Virus record (IMG/VR): IMGVR_UViG_3300028920_000041
Span: 56,931 to 120,930 of that record
DNA length: 64,000 nt
Direction: 5' to 3' (one strand)
From: a virus
A program made the position numbers and the translations under genes. The first letter of the stretch is position 1. Each line of letters starts with the position of its first letter. Positions 8,817 through 57,119 of the stretch are shown in pieces. The notes beneath the pieces are model-generated. The model was not told the DNA's origin. It worked only from the letters and a program-made list of their open reading frames with translations, and ran no database searches.

Positions 8817-9257
8817 ATGCCGACTCTGACAGAATCCATCAAACAGCTTGGAGCAAATTACGTGATTACCCAAGGCAGGTACAACCTCACAGCGGATGCA
8901 CTTCGGTTAAGAGACATCAAACCAATTCACTGTGGTGATAAGTATGTTTTTGAATTCAGTCTACAGAACCCGGATGGATCTGAATACGACCTTACAGGCA
9001 AGACTGTCAGGTTTACTGCAAAGTATGTGGTTGGGGATGGTGAAGCAAGCGCTATTGTCCAAAAGACAGGCGTGATAACCAATCCTCCAGGAACCGATGG
9101 ATTAGTTACAGTGACTCTAACTCCGACAGATGTATCCGGTCCAGAGTTGATAAGAGGACTTTATGATCTGCAAGTAGCAACAGATGCAACAGACCCTGAA
9201 ACGTTCATTTGGGGTGACATAGAGTTCCTGCCAAACATCACAGAGACAGTGCCATGA
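8817..9257 (+). CDS. BppU-like Ig-fold virion protein
   Basis: GDKYVFEFSLQNPDGSEYDLTGKTVRFTAK...GLVTVTLTPTD...YDLQV pattern of the BppU N-terminal family. Confidence 0.65.
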   Translation: MPTLTESIKQLGANYVITQGRYNLTADALRLRDIKPIHCGDKYVFEFSLQNPDGSEYDLTGKTVRFTAKYVVGDGEASAIVQKTGVITNPPGTDGLVTVTLTPTDVSGPELIRGLYDLQVATDATDPETFIWGDIEFLPNITETVP

Positions 9258-9397
9258 ATGAGTCTATAAGAGAAGTGTTGAAAGAGCATTGTCTAACAGA
9301 AGACAAAAAGATTGTAGCATACCACGGTGGACCTAAACCTATCCGTAGATTTGATCCAAAGAGAGTCAAAGTTGTTAAGACAGAAAAGATTAAGTAA
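9254..9397 (+). CDS. 47-aa protein with YHG motif (not in ORF track)
   Basis: MNESIREVLKEHCLTEDKKIVAYHGGPKPIRRFDPKRVKVVKTEKIK; ATGA-coupled to the upstream gene. Confidence 0.5.
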   Translation: MNESIREVLKEHCLTEDKKIVAYHGGPKPIRRFDPKRVKVVKTEKIK

Positions 9398-9541: not shown

Positions 9542-9677
9542 TATTTTGGATTACCTCAAGATCATAGGGTTTGTAGCTGTTTGTTTGTTGATAGCTGTTC
9601 TTATTGCACTTATTGGAATTTACGTTTCAGATAAAAGAGACGAAAAGAAGATAAAGAAGATCAGGAGACGAAGATGA
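9525..9677 (+). CDS. 50-aa single-TM peptide, paralog 2
   Basis: ATG at 9525 within track ORF 9468-9677: MITNPDILDYLKIIGFVAVCLLIAVLIALIGIYVSDKRDEKKIKKIRRRR. Confidence 0.65.
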   Translation: MITNPDILDYLKIIGFVAVCLLIAVLIALIGIYVSDKRDEKKIKKIRRRR

Positions 9678-10099
9678 GTGCCTTTTGCCGTATCAGAGCA
9701 AACGACGTAGCCGACATTTCCAGACTGGCTCTAGCCAGAGGCCTTGAGCATAACATCATGCCGTTTGAAGGAGATGACTACGCTGATTGGGTTACGGTTC
9801 AGTTAACCAATGATAGAAGCCGCAGAGCTTTCGAGAATCTGTGTGCTGAAAACAACGTTACGGTTGACGGTAGGCAGGTGATCCACCGTATGACCGATGC
9901 TGTGCTAGCAGGCACTTCTCCAGAGCGTGCAATGGATGAAGCTCTAACAGGCGGCATGAAACGAGCTATGACAAACGGAGCTAAGTATACCTGTGGTGAT
10001 TGCGGTTTGCCGATCCCTAGGTACAGAGGCAGGTACCCTACTACTTGCCCGGAGTGCAATGGCGAGTTGACTCCACCCCATGAAAGACCGGCAGAGTAG
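9674..10099 (+). CDS. Hypothetical protein with shared leader-like motif and C-terminal zinc ribbon
   Basis: MTDAVLAGTSPERAM motif followed by CGDC...CPEC. Confidence 0.7.
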   Translation: MSAFCRIRANDVADISRLALARGLEHNIMPFEGDDYADWVTVQLTNDRSRRAFENLCAENNVTVDGRQVIHRMTDAVLAGTSPERAMDEALTGGMKRAMTNGAKYTCGDCGLPIPRYRGRYPTTCPECNGELTPPHERPAE

Positions 10100-10108
10100 G
10101 AAACTCCT

Positions 10109-10975
10109 ATGGAACACCTAAAGAGCGTTATCCGTCAAAGTATTTTAACTGAAAGCTTCCTAAAAGAAGACGATGCAGGTGATCCACCCAAGACGCTCAA
10201 AGTCAAAGACACAGCCGGTAAAGATGTTCTGAGCTACTTCTATAGCGGTGTACTGGATAACTACAAGCTAAAGCCTGATCAAGTCATGGCCATGATAGGT
10301 GGTGGTGACATTGATAAAGGCAAACAGATGTTCGTTGCCAACTTCAACACACTTCGTAAAGCGGCGAGCAGTAGTGGCAAGCCTCCCAGAGCTTGGATGC
10401 CTGTCATAAAACCTAATGACATACCAGGCCTTGTAAGAGCGCTCAAAGCAGGCCAGATAGACATCGCTATCCCGCATGCAGATCTCAAGAAGAAAACAGA
10501 GAGCTTTCTATCAGCGTTGAATGACATGTTGACAGAGGCTCCAAAGTATAAAGACAAAGAGATTGATATGGCTAAAGGCAAAGGACAGCCTAAGCCAGCG
10601 CCTGACAAAAAGACCTTTCTCAAGAAAGGGACTATGGACAATGTCAAAGCTGATGACATTGTCAGAGGCATCAAAGTTGCTGAGATACCGGTTAAGCAGC
10701 TAAAGCCGTCTCAAGATGAAATCTATGGATCTAAGATTGCTTTGAACATGACAAAGATGGGACCAACGGTAGGTGGCAAGACTGCTTTTGGTGAGCCTGA
10801 CATCATTGTTACTTCAGATAACTACATACTAGATGGTCATCATAGGTGGGCTACAGCGTGGGCCGGTCACCCAAGCAACAAGATAAAGGTTACTGTGATC
10901 CCACTGCCACTAAAGCACCTGTTCTTGGTTCTGAGAGCATATGGTGCAGCACTTGGCAATCCACAGCAGTCCTAG
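10109..10975 (+). CDS. ParB/sulfiredoxin-like domain protein
   Basis: C-terminal IPVKQLKPSQDEI...IIVTSDNYILDGHHRW motif; GGAAA-type RBS upstream. Confidence 0.8.
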   Translation: MEHLKSVIRQSILTESFLKEDDAGDPPKTLKVKDTAGKDVLSYFYSGVLDNYKLKPDQVMAMIGGGDIDKGKQMFVANFNTLRKAASSSGKPPRAWMPVIKPNDIPGLVRALKAGQIDIAIPHADLKKKTESFLSALNDMLTEAPKYKDKEIDMAKGKGQPKPAPDKKTFLKKGTMDNVKADDIVRGIKVAEIPVKQLKPSQDEIYGSKIALNMTKMGPTVGGKTAFGEPDIIVTSDNYILDGHHRWATAWAGHPSNKIKVTVIPLPLKHLFLVLRAYGAALGNPQQS

Positions 10976-10984
10976 GAGATAACA

Positions 10985-11293
10985 ATGGTTGCTGAAAAGA
11001 TGATCGAAGCAGTACTCGAAGGTAACACTGCTGAAGATGTTATGACTCAAACTCTTTCAGAGAAGAGCGAAAGAGTACATACCATCTGGCGTCATATACC
11101 CGATGACTGGAAAGCACAGTTTGAAAAAAAGAAGCTTAAAAGGAAGTCTGGCGAAGATGAAGTGATCACCATGATACCTGACTATGGCGAAGTATCAGCC
11201 GGTAAGGGTATGTTCAAGCTAAAGACAATAGAGCCAGGAAAAGCGTCAATCAGAAAAGTCATCAGAGGCCTAACCGGAATGCAGAAGTGGTAG
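10985..11293 (+). CDS. Small protein with shared leader-like motif
   Basis: GGAG RBS; N-terminal MIEAVLEGNTAEDVM. Confidence 0.7.
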   Translation: MVAEKMIEAVLEGNTAEDVMTQTLSEKSERVHTIWRHIPDDWKAQFEKKKLKRKSGEDEVITMIPDYGEVSAGKGMFKLKTIEPGKASIRKVIRGLTGMQKW

Positions 11294-11303
11294 GGGATCT
11301 ATT

Positions 11304-12014
11304 ATGAACGAAACTATACTAGATGTTATCAGTAAGAATCTTGTAGTAGAAGCAACATCACTTCAACCTGTAACAAGGACTTTTAAGAGGTTTTTGAAAT
11401 CAAAGGTTGTTCCTTATCTAACCAGATCCACAGGGCAGGAGTGGCAGGTTTCTAATCTTGGAGGTAAGTCTTCTGGAAGGTTTGTAAAATACTATGTCAA
11501 TACAAACGGATCTCCAAGGTTAGAAATTAGTTGGGAGTTTGAAGTTGCTAAAGCTGCAAATGAAGATGAGTTCAACCTGAGAATTTACTTCACCAAGGAC
11601 AATAACATACTTGGTCAGTATATTTATGGAGTTCAGGGGCAAGGTAATAGCTATATTAAACAAAACGATTTGAAAGACTTAAATAAGTTGGTTCCAGAAG
11701 TGATTATAACCGCTATAGAAGGATCAAAAGTTACTACAGTTCCCACTAAAGAGATTGAAGCTATAACTAAAGAGATTGAAGCTATAAAATCATTATCAGA
11801 AAGCTTGGATAGAACTTTATCTAAAGTTCAAAACTTTGTTCCAAAGTTTAATGATATAGTTAAAAAAGCTCTTAAATCTAAAGATCCGCAGAGGGAATTA
11901 GTTAATAGCTATAAACTTCTTTCTAGCATAAAAAAGACTCATCTCAGCGGGTATATATCACCACCGGATAGATCAGCTAAGAGTATACTTGAGCGTATTA
12001 AAGATCTATCTTAG
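11304..12014 (+). CDS. Hypothetical protein (AT-rich)
   Basis: 236-aa ORF with GGGG RBS-like sequence; visibly more AT-rich than neighbours. Confidence 0.65.
   Translation: MNETILDVISKNLVVEATSLQPVTRTFKRFLKSKVVPYLTRSTGQEWQVSNLGGKSSGRFVKYYVNTNGSPRLEISWEFEVAKAANEDEFNLRIYFTKDNNILGQYIYGVQGQGNSYIKQNDLKDLNKLVPEVIITAIEGSKVTTVPTKEIEAITKEIEAIKSLSESLDRTLSKVQNFVPKFNDIVKKALKSKDPQRELVNSYKLLSSIKKTHLSGYISPPDRSAKSILERIKDLS
11745..11786 (+). repeat. Perfect in-frame 21-nt tandem duplication
   Basis: actaaagagattgaagctata x2, encoding TKEIEAI twice. Confidence 0.9.
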
Positions 12015-12378
12015 GCTAAATAAAAATCAACATGACAGCTCAAGAGAGAGACAAGTTCGCAAGAGCAGTATTCGACGGTTCGTTCTTCCAGTACTGGAAG
12101 CTAAAGGACATGACTACTCTGGCGATGAAGACATAAACAGTAACTTTCCCATTGTTGCTAGACGGATGAAAGAGGAAATAGACAAATACGATGTCTGGCA
12201 AGTGTACTTCACAAAGCACATGATGGCTATCGAGACATGGCTAGAAGACAGGGAAGTCAAGAGTGAGCCGATCCACATGAGAATAGTGGATGCTATTAAC
12301 TATCTCATCATCTTATGGTCTATGGCAGCAGACCAAGGCCTTATGCCAAGTGCTATAGACGTACCTCAACAAATGTAA
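11989..12378 (+). CDS. Nucleotide-modification-associated / MazG-like all-alpha NTP pyrophosphohydrolase (DUF1599-like); 5' end possibly frameshifted
   Basis: KGHDYSGDED...NF and SEPI..RIVDAINYLIIL motifs. The natural-looking start (ATG 12032) lies in another frame. Confidence 0.6.
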   Translation: MSVLKIYLRLNKNQHDSSRERQVRKSSIRRFVLPVLEAKGHDYSGDEDINSNFPIVARRMKEEIDKYDVWQVYFTKHMMAIETWLEDREVKSEPIHMRIVDAINYLIILWSMAADQGLMPSAIDVPQQM

Positions 12379-12388
12379 AGGATCTACC

Positions 12389-12982
12389 ATGCCGCCTGCA
12401 ATGGTTAAGAAATGGGCCAAAGAAAAGGGTATGAGTACCAAAGAAGCAGAACGCAGGTGGGCCAAAGCTAAGCTACTCGCTTCAAAGCAAGGTCGCAATC
12501 CAGAAATCACTGGTGTTAACAAAGACTGGGAGTATGTAGTCGGTATATACAGAACTATGATGAAAAAGAAGCCTAAAACAGAGTCTCTGATACACAAAAG
12601 TTTAATCGAGACAATGATCGACCAAGTACTGAACGGCAAGTCTCCCAGTCAATTGATCCATAGTTTCTTTGCAAGTAGTTCGTCAGACAGTACACCGATT
12701 CGGGAAAGTGATAACACTATCAACGTTGGCGATAGCTACGTCCAAAACAAAAATTTGCGTACATTTTTCGACGGTGAGGGAAAACTTAGGTTTTGCACTA
12801 CCGAGAATGTACTAATCAGGCCAAACAGTGATCCTCGATTATTAGAACTTGTTGCATACGCTGACTGTTTGAGTGTTGATAACCCTCTGTTTGATGTGTT
12901 TGAGTCTTACGAGGGTTCGTTAGAAGATTTGTATGATCAAGTAACAAGTGCATACTCTTTGGTAACACAAACAGGTGCATAA
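12389..12982 (+). CDS. Putative head-associated protein
   Basis: N-terminal MP..MVKKWAKEKGMSTKEAERRWAKAK helical domain of a type I recall from large-phage head regions; internal MIDQVLNGKSPSQLI motif. Confidence 0.65.
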   Translation: MPPAMVKKWAKEKGMSTKEAERRWAKAKLLASKQGRNPEITGVNKDWEYVVGIYRTMMKKKPKTESLIHKSLIETMIDQVLNGKSPSQLIHSFFASSSSDSTPIRESDNTINVGDSYVQNKNLRTFFDGEGKLRFCTTENVLIRPNSDPRLLELVAYADCLSVDNPLFDVFESYEGSLEDLYDQVTSAYSLVTQTGA

Positions 12983-13496
12983 AATGCTAGTTGGACAAGA
13001 ATACACAGTCATTGGTTGGTGTAAGAACAGACTGATTTTGCGTGACAAGATCATGTTGCAAAATCTACTAGAGGAAGTCTGTTTTGTTATTGACATGACA
13101 TCGCTCGGATCTATCGGAGTTAATGTTCCTATCGAACTTGACAAGTTGAACAAAGATAAATTCGAAGATGAAGGTGGTTCTACGTCTTGTGTTCTGGCTG
13201 GAAGAGTAGACGCGAATCAAGCTTCACTGGTCTTGTCTACCAGTCACGCAAACATTCATGGCTGGCCAGACAGAGACGTTAATAGAGATGATGGTGGCTT
13301 CTTTTGGTTTACGGTAGGTTCCTGCAGGCCTTTTAAGACAATGAAAGTTGATAACTGGCTACATGAGTACTTGAAAGCTACTCACGTAAAGCGGATCTCC
13401 AGGTGGATTGAGTACAAGGATGGAGTGTTCATGCACTCCGAACAAGGCCTCCCTTCAGGAATTGGAGTATCTTCTGAACAAGGATTCATAGGATGA
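12975..13496 (+). CDS. speD: S-adenosylmethionine decarboxylase proenzyme family (pyruvoyl)
   Basis: GG.T....(insert)LVLSTSHANIHGWPD and downstream GSCRPF match the 'l.eSHi.iHtwPe...d.fsC..f' pattern. Substrate not determinable from sequence. Confidence 0.65.
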   Translation: MHKMLVGQEYTVIGWCKNRLILRDKIMLQNLLEEVCFVIDMTSLGSIGVNVPIELDKLNKDKFEDEGGSTSCVLAGRVDANQASLVLSTSHANIHGWPDRDVNRDDGGFFWFTVGSCRPFKTMKVDNWLHEYLKATHVKRISRWIEYKDGVFMHSEQGLPSGIGVSSEQGFIG

Positions 13497-13807
13497 TCAC
13501 AGCACAAGAGCTTATAGAGAACTATCTGACTTCTGATATGGATGCAGAGGAAGTTATTGATGAAGTCATTGGACGCAGTAAAAGAACGTTTCGTAGACCT
13601 AGAAAACGAAGGTTCAGGAAGCGTGGCTCTGCTGTAGATCCTATCACCGGAAAGAGGAAAGACCCGCGCCGTAGGCGTCTAATGCGCAAAGTACGTAGAC
13701 GCTTCAAGTCCAAGTTCAAGCGTGCAGCAAAGCTTAGGGCGAGAAAGCTCAAGTCCAGAGGCTTCTATAAGAAGCTTGGCAAGCTTGCCGCTCGCATCCG
13801 TCGATAA
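13493..13807 (+). CDS. Acidic leader plus extremely Arg/Lys-rich protein (putative DNA-condensing core protein)
   Basis: First ~25 aa acidic; the remaining ~78 aa are roughly half Arg/Lys (RRPRKRRFRKR, PRRRRLMRKVRRRFK). Confidence 0.7.
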   Translation: MITAQELIENYLTSDMDAEEVIDEVIGRSKRTFRRPRKRRFRKRGSAVDPITGKRKDPRRRRLMRKVRRRFKSKFKRAAKLRARKLKSRGFYKKLGKLAARIRR

Positions 13808-14071
13808 ATGCCAAGATACTACAAACCAGTAGATCCAAAATACATCATCAAGATTGATGTCTTGGAACTACCTCAAGTCTATGCAGCAGGTGAAGGACAG
13901 TACGAGCTAAGGCAAGCTGATACTCCAGATAAGTATGAACTACATGATCTATTCTCACTTAAAAGAACGTTGAAAACGATAATGCCGAAACGAGTTGATG
14001 ACATCTTGTGTCGGCTGCAGAACTTCAGAGTTGCCTATTTGAATGTAGCAACCGGAGAAATTACGTCATGA
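13808..14071 (+). CDS. Hypothetical protein
   Basis: 87-aa ORF; ATGA overlap with the protease start. Confidence 0.6.
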   Translation: MPRYYKPVDPKYIIKIDVLELPQVYAAGEGQYELRQADTPDKYELHDLFSLKRTLKTIMPKRVDDILCRLQNFRVAYLNVATGEITS

Positions 14072-15507
14072 CACAACTTGTTGAGGTACAGCCTTTTAAC
14101 TATGCAATCGTTGAAGGGAAGGCTAAGCCTGGAGTCCTTTTGACTCTGGAAGGGACTTTTCAACGGGCTGGTACAAAGAACGCTAACGGTAGGATCTATC
14201 CGTTGCCTCTTTGGAAAAAGTTGATGTCTGATGAAGATGTCAACGAAAGGATCCAAGCCAGAAGGATGCTTGGCCACTTGGACCATCCTTCAAGTGGTGC
14301 GACTTCTCTAAGTTGTGTGTCTCACGTAGTTACAGAGCATAAGCTTCAAAGCGATGGCAGTGTAAAGGGTAAGCTTGAAATACTTGATACACCAATGGGT
14401 CAGATTGCTTCTACACTTGCTAAAGCAGGTGTTCAGTTCGGTGTGTCTTCAAGGGGTGATGGTTCTGTCGAAAGGAAAGGAGATGTAGACGAAGTACAGA
14501 ACGATTATCGACTAGAAACGTATGATCTTGTGTTAAAGCCTTCGACTCCAGGCGCTTACCCTCAGATTGTTGAGTCAGAGGAAAAAGCAAAGGAGAATCT
14601 AGATCTCATCGCACAAGCAGTTGAAGGACTTGTCAATCGCACTAATGAAGTTGATGTGCTATTAGAGTGTCACAAAATAATCAGTGTCCTGGAAGGCTGC
14701 AACGAGCGTCGAGAGCAGATCTTAGCCGAGCTAAAGACAAAGCTTGGTACTGGTCAAGAGGAACAAGAAAAAAGAGAAACTCACGATTCGGAGGGACTAA
14801 AGATGACGGGAACTAATGCTGTTCCGAATGCTCCGACTGCTACGCCACAGCTTACAATTTCTCCTGAGATGAAAGACTATCTCCAGGAATGGGTTGATAA
14901 AGGTGTGGAGGAAGCCGTTGCAGCTAAGAACGAAGAGATTAACGATTTGAACGAAAGGATCGTTGGTCTGGTCAATGAACGAGATGAGCTTGTTTTACGT
15001 ATGGGTGCGGCTGAGCAGTTGATCGAGGAGTTCACTCGTAAGGTCAAATCTCTGAGTGACAATCGCACTACAGACGAAGAGCTTCACGAAAGGTTTGACG
15101 CTTCTGTGTCATTGCTTGATGAAGCGATGTCAAGGTTGCAGGAGCTAGGCGAGACGCAGAGGCGTTTAGCTGCAGCCGAAGAGCTTCTTCAGGCTTCTAT
15201 TTGTCGAGCGCAAGTGGAGTCTGTTGCAGCTAGCATTGAAGAGAAGATAGAAGACCTTGACGAATCAACGCAAGAGACGCTTAGGACGTTGCTTGAGGAC
15301 TGCGAATCTGCCGAGGAAGTAGATAGCAAGTTTTCTCAGCTTGAGAGTCTGATTGAAAGCCAGAGTGATGGTTTTCCGGAGCCTGTTGTCAGGGAACCGC
15401 TGCCATCCAGAACAGGGAATCTGACAGAAGACCAGATCGGTAACGCTCGTTCGAACGGACCTAAAGACTTCATTACCAGTAGGCTTCTTTCGAAGATTGC
15501 TGGTTAA
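14068..15507 (+). CDS. gp21: Prohead protease (T4 gp21-like) fused to coiled-coil scaffold
   Basis: NANGRIYP...LGHLDHP...VSH...GKLEILDTPMG...GVSSRG.GS motifs, then ~280 aa acidic coiled coil. Start placed at ATG 14068. Confidence 0.9.
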   Translation: MTQLVEVQPFNYAIVEGKAKPGVLLTLEGTFQRAGTKNANGRIYPLPLWKKLMSDEDVNERIQARRMLGHLDHPSSGATSLSCVSHVVTEHKLQSDGSVKGKLEILDTPMGQIASTLAKAGVQFGVSSRGDGSVERKGDVDEVQNDYRLETYDLVLKPSTPGAYPQIVESEEKAKENLDLIAQAVEGLVNRTNEVDVLLECHKIISVLEGCNERREQILAELKTKLGTGQEEQEKRETHDSEGLKMTGTNAVPNAPTATPQLTISPEMKDYLQEWVDKGVEEAVAAKNEEINDLNERIVGLVNERDELVLRMGAAEQLIEEFTRKVKSLSDNRTTDEELHERFDASVSLLDEAMSRLQELGETQRRLAAAEELLQASICRAQVESVAASIEEKIEDLDESTQETLRTLLEDCESAEEVDSKFSQLESLIESQSDGFPEPVVREPLPSRTGNLTEDQIGNARSNGPKDFITSRLLSKIAG

Positions 15508-15550
15508 GGTCAAAGACGACAACACACAAGTTAAATCAACTTCGGAGGAC

Positions 15551-16972
15551 ATGATGATTATTGGAATTGACGAACACAAGGCAGAGCACAATAAGATGCT
15601 TAGTGTTGGGCACTCTTTGGCCTCGAATTACAACATGACCCTTTACGAGAATGAAAAAGAGGGTCGTAAGATGTCCATGGGGGAGCTTCTGGAAGGCCTC
15701 CCGGAAGATTCTTTGGTTCGTGCTCACACAGCAGTTATGGTTGAAAACACTCGTCGCTATTTCAACTCGCTAGATGAGACAACCAAGCTTGTGAACATCG
15801 GTGATTTCGAAAAGTACGCTTACCCGATGGTTCGGGCGGTGTTCCCGAACCTTGCTGCGCACAACTTGGCTTCTGTACAGCCGATGCTGGGTCCCGTCTC
15901 TTTAGTGTTCTACATGAAGTTCATCTATGGTCTGACCAAAGGATCTGCGGTCGCGGGTACAGACATCATCGAAAACCCGAATCAGAACTATGCTTCTGAG
16001 GATATCGATGAAGAAAACGTCGGTACGGGCACTGGTGTTGCTACTGCTTTTACAGGAAACCTGTCTTACCTTCCGGTGAAGCCTGGTACGGTGAAGTTCA
16101 CAGGCGATGTTAGTGGTGTTCTGCTTGAGGTAACGGACGATGGCAACGGGAACATGATCGGTGATATTGGTGTTGGTACCAATACCATCAATTACGTTAC
16201 CGGCGCTTTCAACTTCGATTTCTCCAGCGCTATCGATAGCGGAGATCCGGTCAATGCTGCTTACAGCTATGACTTGGAAGGTAACGATACCATCCCCGAT
16301 ATTGATATGCAGCTTACTTCGAGTCCGGTTGTTGCCACGACTCGTAAGCTTAGGACTCGGTGGAGCCTTGAGGCTGCGCAAGATCTTAGGAACCTGCATG
16401 GTCTTGAGGCAGAGGTTGAGCAAGTCGCGGCAGTGTCCAATGAGATGAAGTTTGAGATTGACCGCGAAGTGATCGACAACATGGCGGCTATTGCTAACGG
16501 CTCTGTTGCAGCGTTTAGCAAGACACCCCTTACTGGTATCTCGTTCACAGAGCATAAGCTCGGTTTCGTAGACACACTGATTGCTGCCTCTAATGTGATC
16601 TTTGGTGCTACGCAGCGCGCTCTTGGAACGTGGATTATCGCCGGTCTGAATGTCACCAACCTGATCGAGTCCCTTCCGGGCTTTGTCCCCTCGCCACGTC
16701 CAAAGGGAACGAGGGCGGTTTACAAGGCTGGCGTGTTAAATGGCCAGTGGGACATCTGGAAAGATCCAAACTACGGTGTTAACAACTACCTCATGGGGTA
16801 CCAGGGTGATGCAATGTGGGAGGTTGGCTATATCTTCGCTCCTTACATCCTGGCCTACACGACTGCTACGATCATGCTGGATGATTTTGTCGGTCGTAAG
16901 GGTATCTCTTCGCGGTATGGCAAGAAGGCTATTGATGGTAACTTCTACTGCCAGGGCAGTGTAACCGCATAA
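15551..16972 (+). CDS. gp23: Major capsid protein (T4 gp23 family)
   Basis: VQPMLGPVSLVFYMKF.YG, TRKLRTRWSLEAAQDLRNLHGL, EIDREVI, GYIFAPYI, KGISSRYG motifs; GGAGG RBS before ATG 15551. Confidence 0.95.
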   Translation: MMIIGIDEHKAEHNKMLSVGHSLASNYNMTLYENEKEGRKMSMGELLEGLPEDSLVRAHTAVMVENTRRYFNSLDETTKLVNIGDFEKYAYPMVRAVFPNLAAHNLASVQPMLGPVSLVFYMKFIYGLTKGSAVAGTDIIENPNQNYASEDIDEENVGTGTGVATAFTGNLSYLPVKPGTVKFTGDVSGVLLEVTDDGNGNMIGDIGVGTNTINYVTGAFNFDFSSAIDSGDPVNAAYSYDLEGNDTIPDIDMQLTSSPVVATTRKLRTRWSLEAAQDLRNLHGLEAEVEQVAAVSNEMKFEIDREVIDNMAAIANGSVAAFSKTPLTGISFTEHKLGFVDTLIAASNVIFGATQRALGTWIIAGLNVTNLIESLPGFVPSPRPKGTRAVYKAGVLNGQWDIWKDPNYGVNNYLMGYQGDAMWEVGYIFAPYILAYTTATIMLDDFVGRKGISSRYGKKAIDGNFYCQGSVTA

Positions 16973-17010
16973 CCAGTTTTTCAAGTCGCATGCCATCTGC
17001 GGCACTCCTA

Positions 17011-17059
17011 ACCGAAGGGGGTTAGGACTTCGCCCCCTAACCCCCTTCGGTGCTTTTCT
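17011..17059 (+). terminator. Intrinsic terminator after major capsid gene
   Basis: Perfect 16-bp stem accgaagggggttagg / cctaacccccttcggt, 9-nt loop, followed by gcttttctc. Confidence 0.75.
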
Positions 17060-17080
17060 CTAGCAAGTCAAGGACAGCAA

Positions 17081-18659: not shown

Positions 18660-19205
18660 ATGCCGAGAGCAAAGAGAACAACTAAAGCTGGAGTCCGCAA
18701 AAAGAAAAAGAACTTCACTTCTCTGATCTCTGTCTTTACTGAAGAAGTAGAGCTACACGCTTACAAGTGCAACAAAGAGATAGCCAGAGCATACACCAAA
18801 GAAGCCAAAGAGGTTATAGAGTCACAACGGTACAAATGGGCACCTTTAAGTCCTAGGTATAGAGAAGAAAAGATACAAAGAGGCTACGACCATAGGATCT
18901 ATATCAGAACGGGAGAGTTTTTAGACTCCATATCTTGGGGCGTAACACATAAGAAGGTTTGGATGGGAATTCCTTCCAGAAAGATGCATACAGGCAAGTT
19001 TGCTAGATCTGATGAGCCAGATAGAGAGCCTATTCCACTAAGAAAGCTTGCCCGGTGGTTGGAGTTTGGTACAAAGCACATTCCACCTAGACCTATTTGG
19101 AGGCCTCTTTTAGCAAAGTACGTTAGGTTATATCCTGAGTTTGGTAGGCGGTATCGTACAGCAGCAATGAGAGCTGCTAAGAGAAAAGCCAAAGTCGGTA
19201 AATGA
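18660..19205 (+). CDS. Virion morphogenesis / tail completion protein
   Basis: KWAPLSP.Y..K...L..TG.F..SI and WLEFGTKHIPPRP motifs. Confidence 0.75.
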   Translation: MPRAKRTTKAGVRKKKKNFTSLISVFTEEVELHAYKCNKEIARAYTKEAKEVIESQRYKWAPLSPRYREEKIQRGYDHRIYIRTGEFLDSISWGVTHKKVWMGIPSRKMHTGKFARSDEPDREPIPLRKLARWLEFGTKHIPPRPIWRPLLAKYVRLYPEFGRRYRTAAMRAAKRKAKVGK

Positions 19206-20122
19206 TAGATCAAATCCTTCTATATGACCAAGCCGTTGTGACGTGGCTGAATAACACGCTTCCTCCTTTGTTGGAAGGTAGGAGTACGCAGATCTTGGTC
19301 TCGACAGCCAGGAAAGCGTATGCTGAAGTTACTACCGCACGACTCGCAGACAATGAGACGTTAACCACACCGAGGATCTCTCTAACACGGCTTGATTACG
19401 TTAATGACCCTATGCGATTCAACTCTAACAGGGTTCGTAGACTGGGATGGTGCTCTACTCCAGTTAACCAATCTTTGAGAAACGCCAAATTCCCAGCGCC
19501 GGTTACTATAAGCTACCAAGTAGATCTATGGACTCGTTTTGCTAAAGAAATGAATCTATGGGTTCAGCAACTGATGTTTGACTTTGCACAACAGTACATT
19601 TACTTGAGCACAAGACCTGACTCTGTTTGGCAAGACAAACTCTTTATCATGTTCTTGGAAGGTGGGATTTCGGATAACTCCGAACTAGAACCGGGTGAAG
19701 GCGATAGGTCTATAAGAAGGACGTTTACCCTGAGAGCAGACGGCTGGATTTTCGATCAGTCTTTCTTGGACACAAAAGTTGTCAAGTCTTTGGAGTTTCA
19801 GTGGTACGACAAAGACCTGGGAACGCAGTACGAGCTGTCTTTTCTTCCACCCTTAGAGGTAGTCGATCAAGGAACGGGCGGGCAAACCACGTTTAGCTTC
19901 ACGGTCCCAAGGCCTCCAGTTTTAGAGCATTCTTTTGTTCTTCAGACATTGATAGGAACAGAAATAGAGCATGTTCAAGATGACGGTTCTGGTAACCTAT
20001 CTGGTGACAATGTCTCTTCAGGAACTTTGAACTATACAACAGGTGAAGTGTCTATCACGTTCTTTACAGCGCCGGATTCTGGTGCTGATTTGACGGTGAC
20101 ATACTTCACAGATCTGAGTTGA
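19202..20122 (+). CDS. Tail terminator/sheath stabilizer (gp15-like) with C-terminal beta domain
   Basis: P.ISL.R..Y..DP.R; P.PV.I.YQV.LWT; DNSELE.GE..R.IR..F.L...GW.F pattern; position before the sheath. Confidence 0.7.
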   Translation: MIDQILLYDQAVVTWLNNTLPPLLEGRSTQILVSTARKAYAEVTTARLADNETLTTPRISLTRLDYVNDPMRFNSNRVRRLGWCSTPVNQSLRNAKFPAPVTISYQVDLWTRFAKEMNLWVQQLMFDFAQQYIYLSTRPDSVWQDKLFIMFLEGGISDNSELEPGEGDRSIRRTFTLRADGWIFDQSFLDTKVVKSLEFQWYDKDLGTQYELSFLPPLEVVDQGTGGQTTFSFTVPRPPVLEHSFVLQTLIGTEIEHVQDDGSGNLSGDNVSSGTLNYTTGEVSITFFTAPDSGADLTVTYFTDLS

Positions 20123-20503: not shown

Positions 20504-22738
20504 ATGGCGTTCGTCAGTGCTGGAGCTTATGCACGAGAAGTAGATCTTTCTCTGTATGCAGAGACCATTACCTCAACCATTCTTGGGATGGCCCACACGT
20601 TCAACAAGGGTCCTATTGGTACTCCTACTCTTATCACGAATATTGATAGGTTGATTGCCGAGTTTGGGGAACCCATAGATCCAGGCTCTAGCTCTTCAGC
20701 ATGCCAAGGTTGGTTTGCTGCCAGAGAGTATCTCAGAAAAGGTAATAAGCTTTATGTCAATAGGGTTGAGTCTACAGCTACTCCTGCAGCCTATGCAGCA
20801 CAGTCCGTTCGTGGTGTAACGGATCAAACTCTGGCAACAGGTACAGACGGAGCTACTTCTGTTCCAGCAACCAGAACACTAACATCGGCTACCGGGGATT
20901 TTGTAAATGATGGGATTTTGGTAGGCGATGTTTTGGAGGTTGACGAAGGTGGTGCCGATGATGGGTTCTATGTTTTAACTGCGGTTGCTGCTACGGTCCT
21001 AACGATTGACAGAGACTGGCCTACAGGCTCTTTGGCCGATCAAGACTTCACGGTTTGGACAGCAAAGAAAGAGGAAGGTGAAGACGGTGTTACAAGCGCT
21101 CTTGGCGTTCGTACACTAACCTCTGCAGCATCCACGTTCCAGACCAATGGTGTTGCGGCTGGAGATATCCTCAAGATTGCGGATCCCGGTGACACGGGGG
21201 ATAACGGTGTCTATTACATTGCATCGGTTGACAGCGAAACGCAGCTAACGGTTAACAGGGACTGGCAGGAAGGTGGCCTGTCTACGCTTACCTTTACGGT
21301 TTATGGTCCAAACAGCTCCGGAGCAACAGGAAGCACCGCTACAGCCGGTGAGTTTGCCGATACGAACGCCAAGTTCCAAGATCACGGTGTTCAAGCTGGA
21401 GATATCCTCTGGATTAAGGACGCTGTTGATATTGGTGATAATGGCTATTACATGATCACAGGCCTCAAGACAGGCTCTGAAGATACCACGCTAGAGGTTA
21501 ACGAAACAGCGTGGCCTGCAGGATCTCTGACGGGTCTTACCTATGAGGTTTTTCCAGGCTCTGTTACGTATCAAGGTGCAACAAAGGGAACCGCTTTCAG
21601 TGGTCTCAGAATTATCCCTTCTGTTAATGCCAATGACAATACCAAGGTGGACCTTGAGACCAAAAACTCTGCTGGTACATTCAGGCTTGAAAAAGTCTTT
21701 TCCATGGATCGCACTGATGCGGATACGGTGATGTCTTCTGACAGTGCGTATTGGACAGCAACCATAAGGTCTAACCGGTCAGACATCGTTGCAGGGGATA
21801 CATTTACGGTCTCTGGTGGAGATGATGGGTACACAGGGATCGTAGATAGTGACTACATTGGCAACTCTACTTTAGGTACAGGACTCCGAGGCTTTAGCAA
21901 TGCAGAAGCAATTGACGTAAACTTGCTTGTGTGCCCCGGGCAATCGAGCCAGAACGTACAAGATGAGCTAATCAATATCTGTGAGTCAAGAGCAGACTGT
22001 ATGGCGATTGTAGATCCGCCAGATTGGTCTGCAATCGATACAGTCCAAGAGATTTTGAACTTCCACAATGGGACTCTAACGCGCACTACAGCGCTCAACA
22101 CAACCTATGGTGCTTTGTATTGGACTTGGCAGAAAGTTTATGATGAGTACCATGATGTTGATGTGTGGACGGCACCCTCGGGTCACATGGCAGCAGTCTA
22201 TGCCAATAACGATAACGTTCAGGCTCCTTGGTTTGCCCCGGCTGGATTAAAGCGTGGTAAGCTGACTGGATCTACCGATGTTCGTTACTCGCCCAATCAG
22301 GATGACAGAGACGCTCTTTATGGGCCTGGAGCACGGGTCAACCCCATTGTCAACTTCACAGGCTCTGGGATCTATGCTTTTGGTCAGAAAACACTAACCA
22401 CAGCGACTACAGCACTTGATAGGGTCAATGTTCGTCGGATGCTGCTTTATGTGGAAAAGGTCATTGCTACAGCATCTAGACAGCTTGTTTTTGATCCGAA
22501 TGATGATGTACTAGAGAGGGAGTTTAAGCAGCTAGTAGAGCCTGTGCTGGACGATGTTTTGTCCAGGCGCGGGATCGCTGAGTACCTGATAACAACGGCT
22601 ACGACAGATTCAGACAGAGACAACAACAAAGCCGTGTTTAAGATCTTCATCAAACCGATAAAATCAGCCGAGATTATCGAGATAGTCTTTGCTTTAACCT
22701 CGCAAGGGGCAAATTTTTCTGAGCTTATAGCAGCATAG
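20504..22738 (+). CDS. gp18: Contractile tail sheath protein (gp18 family) with three inserted beta repeats
   Basis: MAFVSAG.Y.RE.DLS; F.KGP; C-terminal PWFAPAG..RG, NPIV.F.G.G...FGQKT, RVNVRR.L, VF.PND motifs; AAGGAG RBS. Confidence 0.95.
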   Translation: MAFVSAGAYAREVDLSLYAETITSTILGMAHTFNKGPIGTPTLITNIDRLIAEFGEPIDPGSSSSACQGWFAAREYLRKGNKLYVNRVESTATPAAYAAQSVRGVTDQTLATGTDGATSVPATRTLTSATGDFVNDGILVGDVLEVDEGGADDGFYVLTAVAATVLTIDRDWPTGSLADQDFTVWTAKKEEGEDGVTSALGVRTLTSAASTFQTNGVAAGDILKIADPGDTGDNGVYYIASVDSETQLTVNRDWQEGGLSTLTFTVYGPNSSGATGSTATAGEFADTNAKFQDHGVQAGDILWIKDAVDIGDNGYYMITGLKTGSEDTTLEVNETAWPAGSLTGLTYEVFPGSVTYQGATKGTAFSGLRIIPSVNANDNTKVDLETKNSAGTFRLEKVFSMDRTDADTVMSSDSAYWTATIRSNRSDIVAGDTFTVSGGDDGYTGIVDSDYIGNSTLGTGLRGFSNAEAIDVNLLVCPGQSSQNVQDELINICESRADCMAIVDPPDWSAIDTVQEILNFHNGTLTRTTALNTTYGALYWTWQKVYDEYHDVDVWTAPSGHMAAVYANNDNVQAPWFAPAGLKRGKLTGSTDVRYSPNQDDRDALYGPGARVNPIVNFTGSGIYAFGQKTLTTATTALDRVNVRRMLLYVEKVIATASRQLVFDPNDDVLEREFKQLVEPVLDDVLSRRGIAEYLITTATTDSDRDNNKAVFKIFIKPIKSAEIIEIVFALTSQGANFSELIAA

Positions 22739-22752
22739 GCAGGGGTTACGGG

Positions 22753-23085
22753 CTAGGCAGGGGTAGGGCTTTCGATAACGTCTTCGACAGTTTCACCTCT
22801 GCTTAGTCTTGCTTTTATCTCTTTTGAGTCTAGTAGCAAGATCTCTGCAATATCTTCCAAAGTAAACACTTCACCTCGGTATTCAAACAGCTCGGGTTCT
22901 TCTTTCGCTGGTAGGATCAAGACTATTCGTTTAAGAAAGCTGTTTGTCAGGAGTAAGAAGATCTTCGTTGTTGTCAAGTACAACATACTAGCCAGTTTAC
23001 AAATAGTCCCATTACGAATTGACATAAGGTGTCTCCCTTTTGACAGTATCTGTTGATGTTCAGGCAACTCTGACTTTTCAGGCAA
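22753..23085 (-). pseudogene. Minus-strand ORF with HNH-endonuclease-associated HTH remnant
   Basis: C-terminal FEYRGEVFTLEDIAE.L.....I.ARL.RG.T.E..I resembles the DNA-binding tail of phage HNH homing endonucleases; no nuclease motif upstream. Confidence 0.45.
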
Positions 23086-54308: not shown

Positions 54309-57119
54309 ATGGCTTTCAAGACTCGGCTACGCGGTATCTTTGGTTGGTCTTCGAACAAAAGACCAATGTCAAGGCCTACACTCAAAGATATTGCTCTACA
54401 GACACAGCAAGTACAGTCCGCTGCAGATCGCTATCACAGCGAAATGGACTTTTTACACAGAAGACGACAAGACAGATATGATGTCTATGATGCTATGGAT
54501 AACATGTCTGATGTTGCTTCTGTGCTTGATGCTTATGCCGAGGATGCTGTCCAGCTAGATCCAGAGCACAAGAAGTCAGTTTGGGTAACAGCAAAAAAGA
54601 CTAAAACAAAAAAGCTACTAAACTCATTTTTACATGAAACGCTGAACACTGAAGACTATGTAGAGGGTCTGTGCAGAGATGTTGCCAAGATGGGTGATGA
54701 CTTTGCTCTAGTCAAAGCTCAGAGGGGTAAAGGTGTTACGTCTTTAGTCTGGAGAGATCCTAGGGACATTGAAAGAATTGAAAACCTCGAAGGTATCTTG
54801 ATAGGCTTTGAAGAGACAGCTTTACTTGGTTCCTACAGACAAAGAGTCAACTCTGAAAGACAGCAGGGACGAGATGGCTCCAGTGTGAAACCATCCTATG
54901 AGCCATGGGATGTTATCCACTTTAGGATCTTCAAAAAGAAACGACTGCCGAAAGAGAAGAAACCAAACATCTACGGAACGTCTGTACTAGCAGGTTCAGA
55001 GAGAGTAGCGAAGCAAGTTAAGATACTGGACGACTTGCTTATGATTATGAGGCTCACAAGATCTCTAGACAGATATACATACTACGTTGACGTAGGTCGG
55101 TCACCGGTAGAAGAGGAAGTCAATATCTTACGTCGGTGGAAACAAGCGCTTAAAAGAAAGACCTATTTCGACCCTGCAACAGGACAGTTCGACTCCAGGT
55201 TCGATCCCTATGCTTGGTGTATCACAGGAGATACTAAAATATCTCTACTCGACGGCCGTGAAAGGACTGTTGAGCAACTTGTTGAAGAGTATGGAACAGA
55301 TAAATCTTTTTGGGTGTATTCTAGGGACAAAGAAGGCTATGTTGTTCCAGGGAAAGCAAAGTGTGTAGGCAAGACACGACTTGATGCTGAGCTAGTAAAA
55401 GTAACTCTTGATAATGGTCAGTCTGTCAGGTGCACACCGGATCATAGGTGGATGCTCAAAGACGGCTCATACAAGGAAGCAGAGAAACTAACATCAGGGG
55501 ACAGCTTGAGTCCTCTGTATAGATCTGTCAATAGAGAGGGGTATGAAACCTTCCTTCAGAAGGCTAAAAGAGGTGGTAGGTGGGACTGTACCCATATAAT
55601 GGTAGCTGAAGCTATGTATGGAGCAGAGGCTGTAAGGTACAATGATCCTCCCTTAGACTACACAGGGATTAACAATGTACATCATCTAAAAAAACACAAT
55701 AACAATTCCCCTGAATGCTTGGTTCTTATGGGGAAAGCCGAGCATATGGAAGAGCATAGAAGGTTAAGGGAGAATGATCCGGTTGCTCTCGAAGAATTTG
55801 AATGTAAGAGGATAGAAGCGCTAAGGAAATCAGGATATTCTCCAGCTAGAGCTAAAGCAATGCGGGTTAGGTGGGAAGATCCTTGTTTCAAATCTGTGAT
55901 GTCTCAAGCTGTTTCTGAAAGTTGGAATGATGAGAATAGCAGAGCCAATAGAGTAGAAGCTATCTCTTCCAGGAATAAGAGGTTATGGAGAGATCAAGAC
56001 TACAGAGAAATGATGAAGAGAAGCGCTCGAAAGGAGTTGAGAAGAAGATACCTAGAGCTTGTTGAAGAAGCTGTGTCTATGATGGTCAAAGAGGGTTTCG
56101 ATCCTATGACTGAATGGGATATTGCTAGAGACTATCTTATGACTATAGGGTTGCTACCACCAATCACTCCAAAATGGGAGAAAGCTTTAGGGTACATAGA
56201 ACTTGGGGAAGGTATCCTAGGTGATGCTAACCATAAGGTTGATTCTGTTGAATTTTTGAGTGATCGTGAAGATACTTATGATATTACAGTTAAGGACCAC
56301 AACAACTTTGCTTTGACTGCAGGTGTTTTTATTCATAACTCCGAAGACATTTTTTGGTCAGTAAAGGAGAATAGGAATTCACGTGTCGAAGTACAGCAAG
56401 GGATCACAAACATATCAGACATTGTAGATATTGACCACTTCAGAGATAAGTTCTTTGGTTCTTTAAGAGCACCAAAGGCTTATTTCGGATATGACGGTGA
56501 ACATAATTCTAAGGCTTCCTTGTCAAGCCAGTCTTTAAAGTGGTCTAAAGCAGTGACTTCGATACAAAGAGCTGTTAAGCAAGGCTTGACTCGTTTGTGC
56601 CAGATACATTTGGCTTATCTAGGTCTTGACACAAATGCAGATCAATTTGAAGTCCATATGACACCACCTTCTATTGTTGAATTACTGGATAAGCTGGAGG
56701 CCTGGCAGAATGTGGTTGATGTGGCTGAAAGGATGTCAACGCTTGGTGAAACACTGAATCTTGATAAGTATGACTGGACAGTGTACATTCTCGAAAACGT
56801 TATGTGGTTGTCTAAAGACGAAGTTAAAAAGTTTACTAAGAAGATACCGAAAGATGCACCGCAAGAAGAGCCAGACGATCAGCAGCAGAAACCCACAGAG
56901 CCTCCACAGCCATTTGACACACCGTTTACAAAGCCTGGTGGACAGCCACAACCGGCTGATGTAGTTGGCAAGGGTCCGAAAGAGCCAGAGGAAAAACCTC
57001 AAGCACAGCCTGAAGAAGGCTATGGTGCAAATGGTAAAAGCACAGTACAGCTTGCTAGTATGGAAGTGGATAAGTTGCTTTTAGAGATCAAAGATTACAT
57101 GGAAGCTAGAGTTAACTAA
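54309..57119 (+). CDS. gp20: Portal protein (T4 gp20 family) interrupted by an intein
   Basis: YD.MD...DV...LD.YAED; YG.S.L....R..KQ...L.D...I.RL.R...R..YYVDVG; after the intein EDIFW...DI.DI.HFR.K.F..L..PK. Confidence 0.92.
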   Translation: MAFKTRLRGIFGWSSNKRPMSRPTLKDIALQTQQVQSAADRYHSEMDFLHRRRQDRYDVYDAMDNMSDVASVLDAYAEDAVQLDPEHKKSVWVTAKKTKTKKLLNSFLHETLNTEDYVEGLCRDVAKMGDDFALVKAQRGKGVTSLVWRDPRDIERIENLEGILIGFEETALLGSYRQRVNSERQQGRDGSSVKPSYEPWDVIHFRIFKKKRLPKEKKPNIYGTSVLAGSERVAKQVKILDDLLMIMRLTRSLDRYTYYVDVGRSPVEEEVNILRRWKQALKRKTYFDPATGQFDSRFDPYAWCITGDTKISLLDGRERTVEQLVEEYGTDKSFWVYSRDKEGYVVPGKAKCVGKTRLDAELVKVTLDNGQSVRCTPDHRWMLKDGSYKEAEKLTSGDSLSPLYRSVNREGYETFLQKAKRGGRWDCTHIMVAEAMYGAEAVRYNDPPLDYTGINNVHHLKKHNNNSPECLVLMGKAEHMEEHRRLRENDPVALEEFECKRIEALRKSGYSPARAKAMRVRWEDPCFKSVMSQAVSESWNDENSRANRVEAISSRNKRLWRDQDYREMMKRSARKELRRRYLELVEEAVSMMVKEGFDPMTEWDIARDYLMTIGLLPPITPKWEKALGYIELGEGILGDANHKVDSVEFLSDREDTYDITVKDHNNFALTAGVFIHNSEDIFWSVKENRNSRVEVQQGITNISDIVDIDHFRDKFFGSLRAPKAYFGYDGEHNSKASLSSQSLKWSKAVTSIQRAVKQGLTRLCQIHLAYLGLDTNADQFEVHMTPPSIVELLDKLEAWQNVVDVAERMSTLGETLNLDKYDWTVYILENVMWLSKDEVKKFTKKIPKDAPQEEPDDQQQKPTEPPQPFDTPFTKPGGQPQPADVVGKGPKEPEEKPQAQPEEGYGANGKSTVQLASMEVDKLLLEIKDYMEARVN
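55218..56339 (+). mobile_element. Intein (374 aa) with HNH-type homing endonuclease region
   Basis: Block A CITGDTKISLLDG, block B CTPDH.W...DG, block F DTYDITV..HNNFAL, block G GVFIHN followed by Ser; internal THIMVAE...VHH...NNNSPECL...EH..EH and basic helical repeats. Confidence 0.93.

Follow-up and report, generated by a model that had tools for sequence, protein, structure and literature searches.

A shared peptide motif in otherwise unrelated proteins encoded upstream of the prohead protease gene of an uncultured phage: a candidate capsid-targeting tag

The 64,000-nucleotide stretch of DNA analysed here (the window; bases 56931-120930 of the 120,930-base IMG/VR viral contig IMGVR_UViG_3300028920_000041) carries four genes that are packed without gaps in front of the genes for the prohead protease and the major capsid protein, and whose products share a short peptide motif, here termed motif A. 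Motif A is a real and portable module, conserved at the level of the peptide and clustered beside the head protease gene. By analogy with the capsid-targeting sequence (CTS) of phage T4, it is best explained as a tag that would load its carriers into the forming capsid, acting as a leader for docking at the capsid core and for processing, a proposal which we judge to be right or wrong with about equal probability. The features on which the argument is built are given below, in positions of the window, with amino acids (aa) counted from the protein start and nucleotides (nt) as in the window; positions marked as genome positions count from the start of the contig, and the gene set was obtained with a simple greedy open reading frame (ORF) caller.

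9674..10099, + strand: 141 aa; a 70-aa N-terminal extension, motif A at aa 71-91 (nt 9884-9946), then a CxxC...CxxC zinc ribbon with a faint DZR match
10985..11293, + strand: 102 aa; N-terminal motif A at aa 4-24 (nt 10994-11056), then TLSE, then a body rich in lysine and arginine (K/R)
12389..12982, + strand: 197 aa in three modules, a helical N-domain (aa 1-59), motif A (aa 74-94, nt 12608-12670) and an alpha/beta C-domain (aa 121-195)
13493..13807, + strand: 104 aa; a degenerate motif A at aa 5-26 (nt 13505-13570), then a tail with 49% lysine plus arginine (K+R)
14008..15507, + strand: prohead protease of the T4 gp21 type (phrog_207, head maturation protease, 9.9e-47)
15497..16972, + strand: major capsid protein of the gp23 type (phrog_138, 2.9e-50; PF07068)

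The initial annotation, made from the letters of the window, had placed the four ORFs and their motif strings at these positions, which was confirmed, and had described the proteins as otherwise unrelated, which also holds, since pairwise BLASTP among the four finds neither the motif nor anything else (E>2). ORF 10985 has no match in Pfam, PHROG or the ESM Atlas. ORF 13493 is the final motif-bearing gene ahead of the protease gene, with only an 87-aa ORF (13808-14071) in between, and its copy of the motif is the least canonical of the four; its orthologue in a related locus (L006:5098-5415) carries the same polybasic tail, preceded by an N-terminal motif of canonical form.

Anatomy and distribution of motif A

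Column statistics give the consensus [LM]-I-[ED]-x-V-[LVI]-x-G-x-[SDT]-[PAV]-x-x-[VL]-[VIL]-[ED]-x-hydrophobic, in which the glycine is present in 27 of 28 copies and beyond the last position of which conservation falls at once to background. The mean net charge of the motif is -2.9, and an acidic residue (E or D) fills column 22 in 17 of the 28 copies, after two hydrophobic residues (V/L, then V/I/L). In the AlphaFold2 model of ORF 12389, which was built from a six-row alignment and reaches a mean predicted local distance difference test (pLDDT) score of 73, the motif consists of a helix (residues 72-81), a turn and a second helix (86-96), and is parted from the N-domain and the C-domain by disordered segments at 62-70 and 100-115. 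Motif A is thus predicted to be an acidic module of about 19 residues, made of a helix, a glycine turn and a second helix.

A hidden Markov model (HMM) built from the four strings of 21-22 residues given by the initial annotation, and run over the 179 candidate genes of the whole contig, recovered three non-seed copies at 10-11 bits and several weaker ones, while the best score in 100 residue shuffles of the proteome was 7.2 bits; at or above 3 bits there were seven real copies against 0.49 expected from the shuffles. Iteration converged on 11 copies in 10 proteins of the 121-kb contig, so that the count of four motif proteins made at the outset was too low and at least ten have to be reckoned with. 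These ten are the four in the window and the genome ORFs 40054, 40562, 44494 (1005 aa), 52843, 53422 and 53691 (two copies). All of them lie at genome 40.0-70.7 kb, in a 31-kb block that ends at the protease gene, and belong to the 47 of 148 genes just upstream of it (hypergeometric P=5e-6). The iterated HMM found no copy in the first 40 kb of the contig, and neither the replication region nor the tail region has one. Judged by gene position, the motif does not occur equally in non-virion proteins, an outcome that the initial annotation had named as a refutation of its reading.

Further copies come from 28 related viral loci, which were retrieved with an alignment of capsid proteins (a single protease protein used as query found no relatives). 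With all ORFs on both strands of these loci considered, there were 20 matches at or above 8 bits, all on the coding strand and mostly at the N-terminus of small proteins, in the form M-x-x-LIExVLxGxSPxxVVE. A pooled and re-iterated search that included the relatives, again on both strands, yielded 40 copies, 39 of them on the coding strand; about 25 of the 40 are N-terminal and about 14 internal or C-terminal, with two of the four window copies being N-terminal. Close relatives have many copies, with five in the 12.7 kb of one locus (L008), and in five relatives (L006, L008, L021, L023 and G002) the protease gene follows the motif genes at a distance of some 0.5 kb to 4 kb. In the complete 205-kb genome G004 the only strong copy is situated 1.6 kb from a second gp21-type protease gene. 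This paralogue (L051:9742-10296, - strand) is short, matches phrog_207 at 8.6e-11 and lies far from the head module of that genome, adjoining both the G004 motif-A protein and a lysozyme-like gene.

A 28-row profile of the motif (A3), which as a positive control gives 12 matches in the genome of the window itself, has no match at E<=1 in six complete cultured gp23-type phages (LIS04, GXN1, SP-15, HSE3, Colly_1 and T4; about 1.0 Mb). In a profile search of 1.84 billion (1.84e9) representative proteins, 24 match at E<=1e-3, several of them with two or three copies of the motif lying between modules. Two motif-like cases were met on the contig. The sole minus-strand ORF with a motif-like match (window 22753-23085, 9.7 bits, ..RLSRGETVEDVIES..) is located between the sheath gene and the next gene and may be due to chance or be a small antisense gene. 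A 112-aa protein of locus L004 (genome 27001-27339), whose N-terminus MTIDGLIDVILEQNPGMIKEDVRKIV.. resembles the start of HU/IHF-type DNA-binding proteins, scores at noise with the motif HMM; to the eye alone, an ordinary helix-turn-helix start can thus pass for the motif.

Modular carriers and their cargoes

The copies within the contig have mean identities of 32% at the amino-acid and 48% at the nucleotide level, and identical residues use the same codon in only 39% of cases; it is therefore the peptide, not the DNA, that has been kept, which led us to reject a recent duplication of the DNA, or gene conversion, as the origin of the copies. In line with that, orthologues retain the motif while the surrounding sequence diverges (alignment A2).

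The combinations in which the motif is found vary from phage to phage. The 71-aa protein L008:1408-1623 corresponds to the motif and zinc ribbon of ORF 9674 without the 70-residue extension, so that the motif stands at its very N-terminus. The N-domain of ORF 12389 together with the motif forms a separate gene in four related loci and in a metagenomic protein (L008:1623, L011:5949, L016:2827, L023:862 and P0148), and the motif together with the C-domain of ORF 12389 forms a separate gene in two (L006:4403 and L008:2169); as judged from these arrangements, ORF 12389 is a fusion. The same cargo can thus follow an N-terminal motif in one phage and a motif placed behind another domain in the phage of the window. 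Between L021:382 and L023:7609, a difference of about 170 residues is accounted for by an insertion directly after the VVE of the motif. Taken together, the fusions, the separate genes and this insertion indicate, at the level of gene comparison, that the motif marks module boundaries and that cargo is reshuffled around it.

The attached proteins themselves are orphans in Pfam, PHROGs, a PDB sequence search, Foldseek (viral and PDB) and the ESM Atlas, and tblastn against 50,697 phage records retrieved no relatives of them; the hints obtained are faint ones, to a zinc ribbon, PARP and AdoMet_dc. Outside the motif the carriers contain 20% K+R, compared with 12.7% in the other proteins of the contig (p=0.003), with g53691, g53422 and g40562 being non-basic.

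Some carriers have features of their own. Three in the relatives (L016:2827-3540, L011:5949-6518 and P0140) contain long Gly/Ala-rich glycine-zipper stretches, which resemble those of membrane-inserting ejection proteins and make these carriers look membrane-active. The 1005-aa carrier (L003:6494-9511, genome 44494-47511) combines a faint PARP match in Pfam with an FHGT...GGTYFST pattern, and its N-terminal DWPW..YGKNIAFNKP recurs in the metagenomic proteins P0128 and P0149, which carry HELGH or HEFGH instead. In this sub-family a conserved EKVSYxYDxRxxQN comes after the motif.

Capsid targeting and its alternatives

The CTS that T4 IPI, IPII and IPIII share with Alt was reportedly described by Mullaney and Black in 1996. 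According to the relevant passages of three papers (PMC3012670, PMC9026906, PMC7411985), the internal proteins of T-even phages are diverse and have only the CTS in common, through which they enter the scaffolding core and which gp21 removes by cleavage after (L/I)xE; the T4 background invoked by the initial annotation, a short CTS and gp21 cleavage after (L/I)xE, agrees with these passages. Motif A resembles the T4 CTS in that a short leader is the sole similarity among otherwise unrelated and often basic proteins, in that it is found together with a gp21-type protease and a gp23-type capsid protein and ends in hydrophobic-x-Glu, and in that the cargo genes, like those of the T4 internal proteins, evolve fast and get shuffled.

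Several observations argue for capsid targeting on this model. The motif genes repeatedly adjoin protease genes, including the protease paralogue of G004; the T4-type protease is accompanied by a capsid protein in whose propeptide SLDE-T, already pointed out by the initial annotation, is invariant; the motif ends in two hydrophobic residues and a Glu or Asp, resembling the (L/I)xE site of T4; the attached proteins are rich in K/R; some carriers of relatives look membrane-active, which is common among ejection proteins; the motif is flanked by disorder, as expected at cleavage junctions; and there are precedents in the T4 CTS and in DarB of phage P1. In the mechanism proposed on this basis, the hairpin would dock its carrier onto the prohead core, where its candidate partner is the capsid protein's N-terminal propeptide or else the C-terminal, scaffold-like region of the protease protein, so that the attached, often K/R-rich proteins would be enclosed as the shell forms. 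Cleavage by the gp21-type protease would follow, either at the Glu/Asp with which helix 2 closes or immediately behind it, and the cargo set free in this way would either remain with the DNA or pass into the host on ejection.

It has to be noted, however, that a number of points weigh against this reading. In sequence, motif A and the T4 CTS are not similar: at E<=1 the whole T4 genome gives no match to profile A3, and over T4 100-164 kb the HMM scores stay at noise. Of the 28 copies, 11 lack an acidic residue (E or D) in column 22, and copy numbers are low, at one to four each, in three distant relatives of 205-241 kb with complete or near-complete genomes. The third or so of the copies that are internal or C-terminal (about 14 of 40) do not conform to the prediction of a classic N-terminal propeptide model and make the motif behave more like a small docking domain than like a signal bound to the N-terminus. 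As to the docking partner, a copy of the motif within the scaffold-like region of the protease was considered and rejected, because the weak match (1.4 bits) is not conserved in relatives, and no partner was found in this way. The 31-kb block further holds enzymatic-looking genes (a weak AdoMet decarboxylase-like one and a ParB-like one), and may therefore represent a cluster of early genes for host takeover. Finally, both phage and host are uncultured, and no cultured relative carries the motif. Of the modular "load into head" tag put forward by the initial annotation, the portable module in the head-gene neighbourhood of a gp21/gp23-type phage stands, while loading itself would follow by analogy.

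Unlike the T4 CTS, motif A is twice as long, is predicted to form a hairpin with a near-invariant glycine and also occurs internally, C-terminally and in multiple copies. In the giant phages phiKZ and SPN3US many head-internal proteins are processed after Glu by gp21-like proteases, and the propeptides of ejection and inner-body proteins have been proposed to target the prohead (passages in PMC7411985, PMC5694885); those propeptides are, in contrast to motif A, longer than 100 residues, and a common 20-residue consensus is not mentioned in the passages concerned (PMC7411985, PMC5694885). With DarB of P1, an N-terminal segment suffices for a foreign protein to enter the head of a myovirus, but the Dar proteins are without a common consensus and the sequences are unrelated (PMC9024508). 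What motif A, as predicted, shares with the scaffold of P22 is the form of a small helical hairpin. The P22 scaffolding protein has a C-terminal helix-turn-helix coat-binding domain that docks inside the procapsid and can carry foreign cargo. That hairpin, however, is basic and part of the scaffold itself, whereas motif A is acidic and spread over many proteins.

A bolder form of the capsid-targeting reading, which is offered tentatively and is the less probable of the two, is that the hairpin constitutes a position-independent "load and cut" domain, which would mark the junctions of polyprotein-like ejection proteins for the prohead protease and, through its recurrence at module boundaries, let the clade swap and fuse its cargo, and which, together with the type B leader described below, would make up a two-tag sorting code. 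Should the hairpin indeed bring proteins into heads, the T4 lineage would have a second capsid-addressing signal, one that is defined by its structure, unrelated in sequence to the T4 CTS and functional wherever in a protein it is placed, and cargo would be seen to be shuffled around a tag held in common. It would also provide a sequence rule by which the injected protein arsenal of an uncultured phage clade (here a PARP-like protein and zinc-ribbon, polybasic and membrane-active-looking proteins) could be predicted from the genome alone, as well as a new tag for protein packaging in phage-derived particles.

Among the alternatives, the one that survives best, though it is rather improbable, holds that the hairpin acts independently of the capsid, binding a common hub or pairing the carriers with one another and thereby gathering host-takeover or anti-defence proteins on one cytoplasmic partner of phage or host origin. 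A structured hairpin that sits between linkers and may be N-terminal, internal or C-terminal does fit a docking domain better than a propeptide, and the existence of several proteins with two or three copies, as well as the fact that every attached protein is an orphan without structural annotation, also speaks for it. Such a hub does not account for the way in which motif genes adjoin gp21-type protease genes time and again in several genomes, nor for the K/R-rich tails and the hydrophobic-hydrophobic-Glu ending, and the gap-free packing of the four genes before those for protease and capsid protein also speaks against it.

It is unlikely that the carriers are an expanded set of minor scaffold-core proteins of the gp67/gp68 kind that build or size the core, with the motif as a core-assembly element and not a cargo tag. 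The gene order 20-67-68-21-22-23 of T4 gives this idea its appeal: like genes 67 and 68, the motif genes are small and stand directly upstream of the protease gene, and ORF 13493, the last of them, has an acidic N-terminal part and a polybasic tail as gp68 does, while the N-terminus of gp67, MEGLIEAIKSNDL, resembles helix 1 of the motif. Homology to T4 gp67 (PF17634) or gp68 was nevertheless rejected, since the Pfam model GP67 matches T4 gp67 alone and none of the motif proteins, BLASTP of ORF 13493 against gp68 gives E=4, and the motif profiles score at noise in T4, with no match in the whole genome. The resemblance is one of position and appearance only, and the attached domains (zinc ribbon, PARP-like, alpha/beta) are too varied for a single structural role.

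A shade less likely again is a masking function, in which the acidic hairpin would serve as an internal pro-domain that neutralises the basic, DNA-binding part of its own protein until a protease removes it, and not as an address. The charges are of the right sign, with a mean of -2.9 for the motif and K/R-rich remainders that reach their extreme in ORF 13493, but several carriers, named above, are non-basic, a 20-residue hairpin cannot balance a polybasic tail of 75 residues, and the strictly conserved glycine turn and the hydrophobic face point to a specific fold or partner. Such a role can be compatible with the capsid-targeting explanation. That the resemblance is due to chance or composition, as a generic amphipathic helix pattern, can practically be dismissed: although pairwise BLASTP is blind to the motif and one of the 24 profile matches, P0145, is an unrelated bacterial repeat protein, the shuffles, the ORFs of the non-coding strand and the six control genomes give essentially no matches, and the motif is kept in orthologues while its flanks diverge.

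A second leader and the head module

Between and before the motif genes there are proteins with a different N-terminal leader, termed type B, of the form M.E.I..V[LI]...L[TV]E followed by a small residue. It is present on at least seven proteins, namely the three of the window given in the list below and those at genome 42552, 43113, 43700 and 52099 (locus L003), which lie upstream of the window, and it exceeds chance, with three non-seed matches at or above 5 bits against 0.20 in shuffles.

9254..9397, + strand: basic mini-protein of 47 aa; type B leader ending LTE, then D
10109..10975, + strand: 288 aa, phrog_2859; type B leader ending ILTE, then S; C-terminal DGHHRW
11304..12014, + strand: 236 aa; type B leader ending LVVE, then A
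20504-22738: sheath
54309-57119: T4-type portal, 936 aa, 40 kb downstream of the head module; matches Portal_T4 in two pieces

This leader bears on the LxE sites that the initial annotation had seen in the neighbours of the motif genes. The strings are present (ILTE-S, CLTE-D and LVVE-A), but they are the ends of the type B leader, and a bare LxE is too common to count alone. The DGHHRW element of ORF 10109 looks ParB/Srx-like, for which a Pfam search of this ORF gave no match.

The contig, which CheckV puts at about 57% completeness and in which all sizeable genes are on the + strand, belongs, by sequence, to a distantly T4-like phage with a T4-like head module. The protease ORF has an acidic coiled-coil C-terminal region fused to the protease part; this region looks like a scaffold, and no separate scaffold gene is present between the protease gene and the capsid gene. 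PF07068 matches all homologues of the capsid protein, and since these are 472 aa long its start is probably at 15554. Counted from there, SLDE-TT occupies residues 72-77, with E75 and T77 invariant in 20 sequences, and is the likely maturation site. The nearest capsid proteins of cultured phages (Listeria LIS04, Bacillus SP-15 and HSE3, and Maribacter phages) are 29-36% identical, while metagenomes are rich in homologues, those of the closest relatives being 70-88% identical.

In the portal protein, positions 1-249 and 255-432 of the Portal_T4 model are split by an insert of about 380 aa, in which a Hint-like string (..DTKISLLDG..) suggests an intein. The T4 late promoter (TATAAATA), sought as a clue to timing, is absent from the coding strand, and a generic promoter and terminator scan was uninformative. 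Two long GC-rich hairpins of the ACCGAAGGGGG...CCCCCTTCGGT type, at window 16973-17080 and genome 55272-55357, enclose a series of genes without gaps between them, among which are the four motif genes and those for the protease and the capsid protein; the series may therefore be one transcription unit. ORF 19202-20122 has a stretch of 88 residues in common with the capsid protein (34% identity; capsid residues 174-261 in the 491-aa numbering from 15497), which is probably a shared insertion domain.

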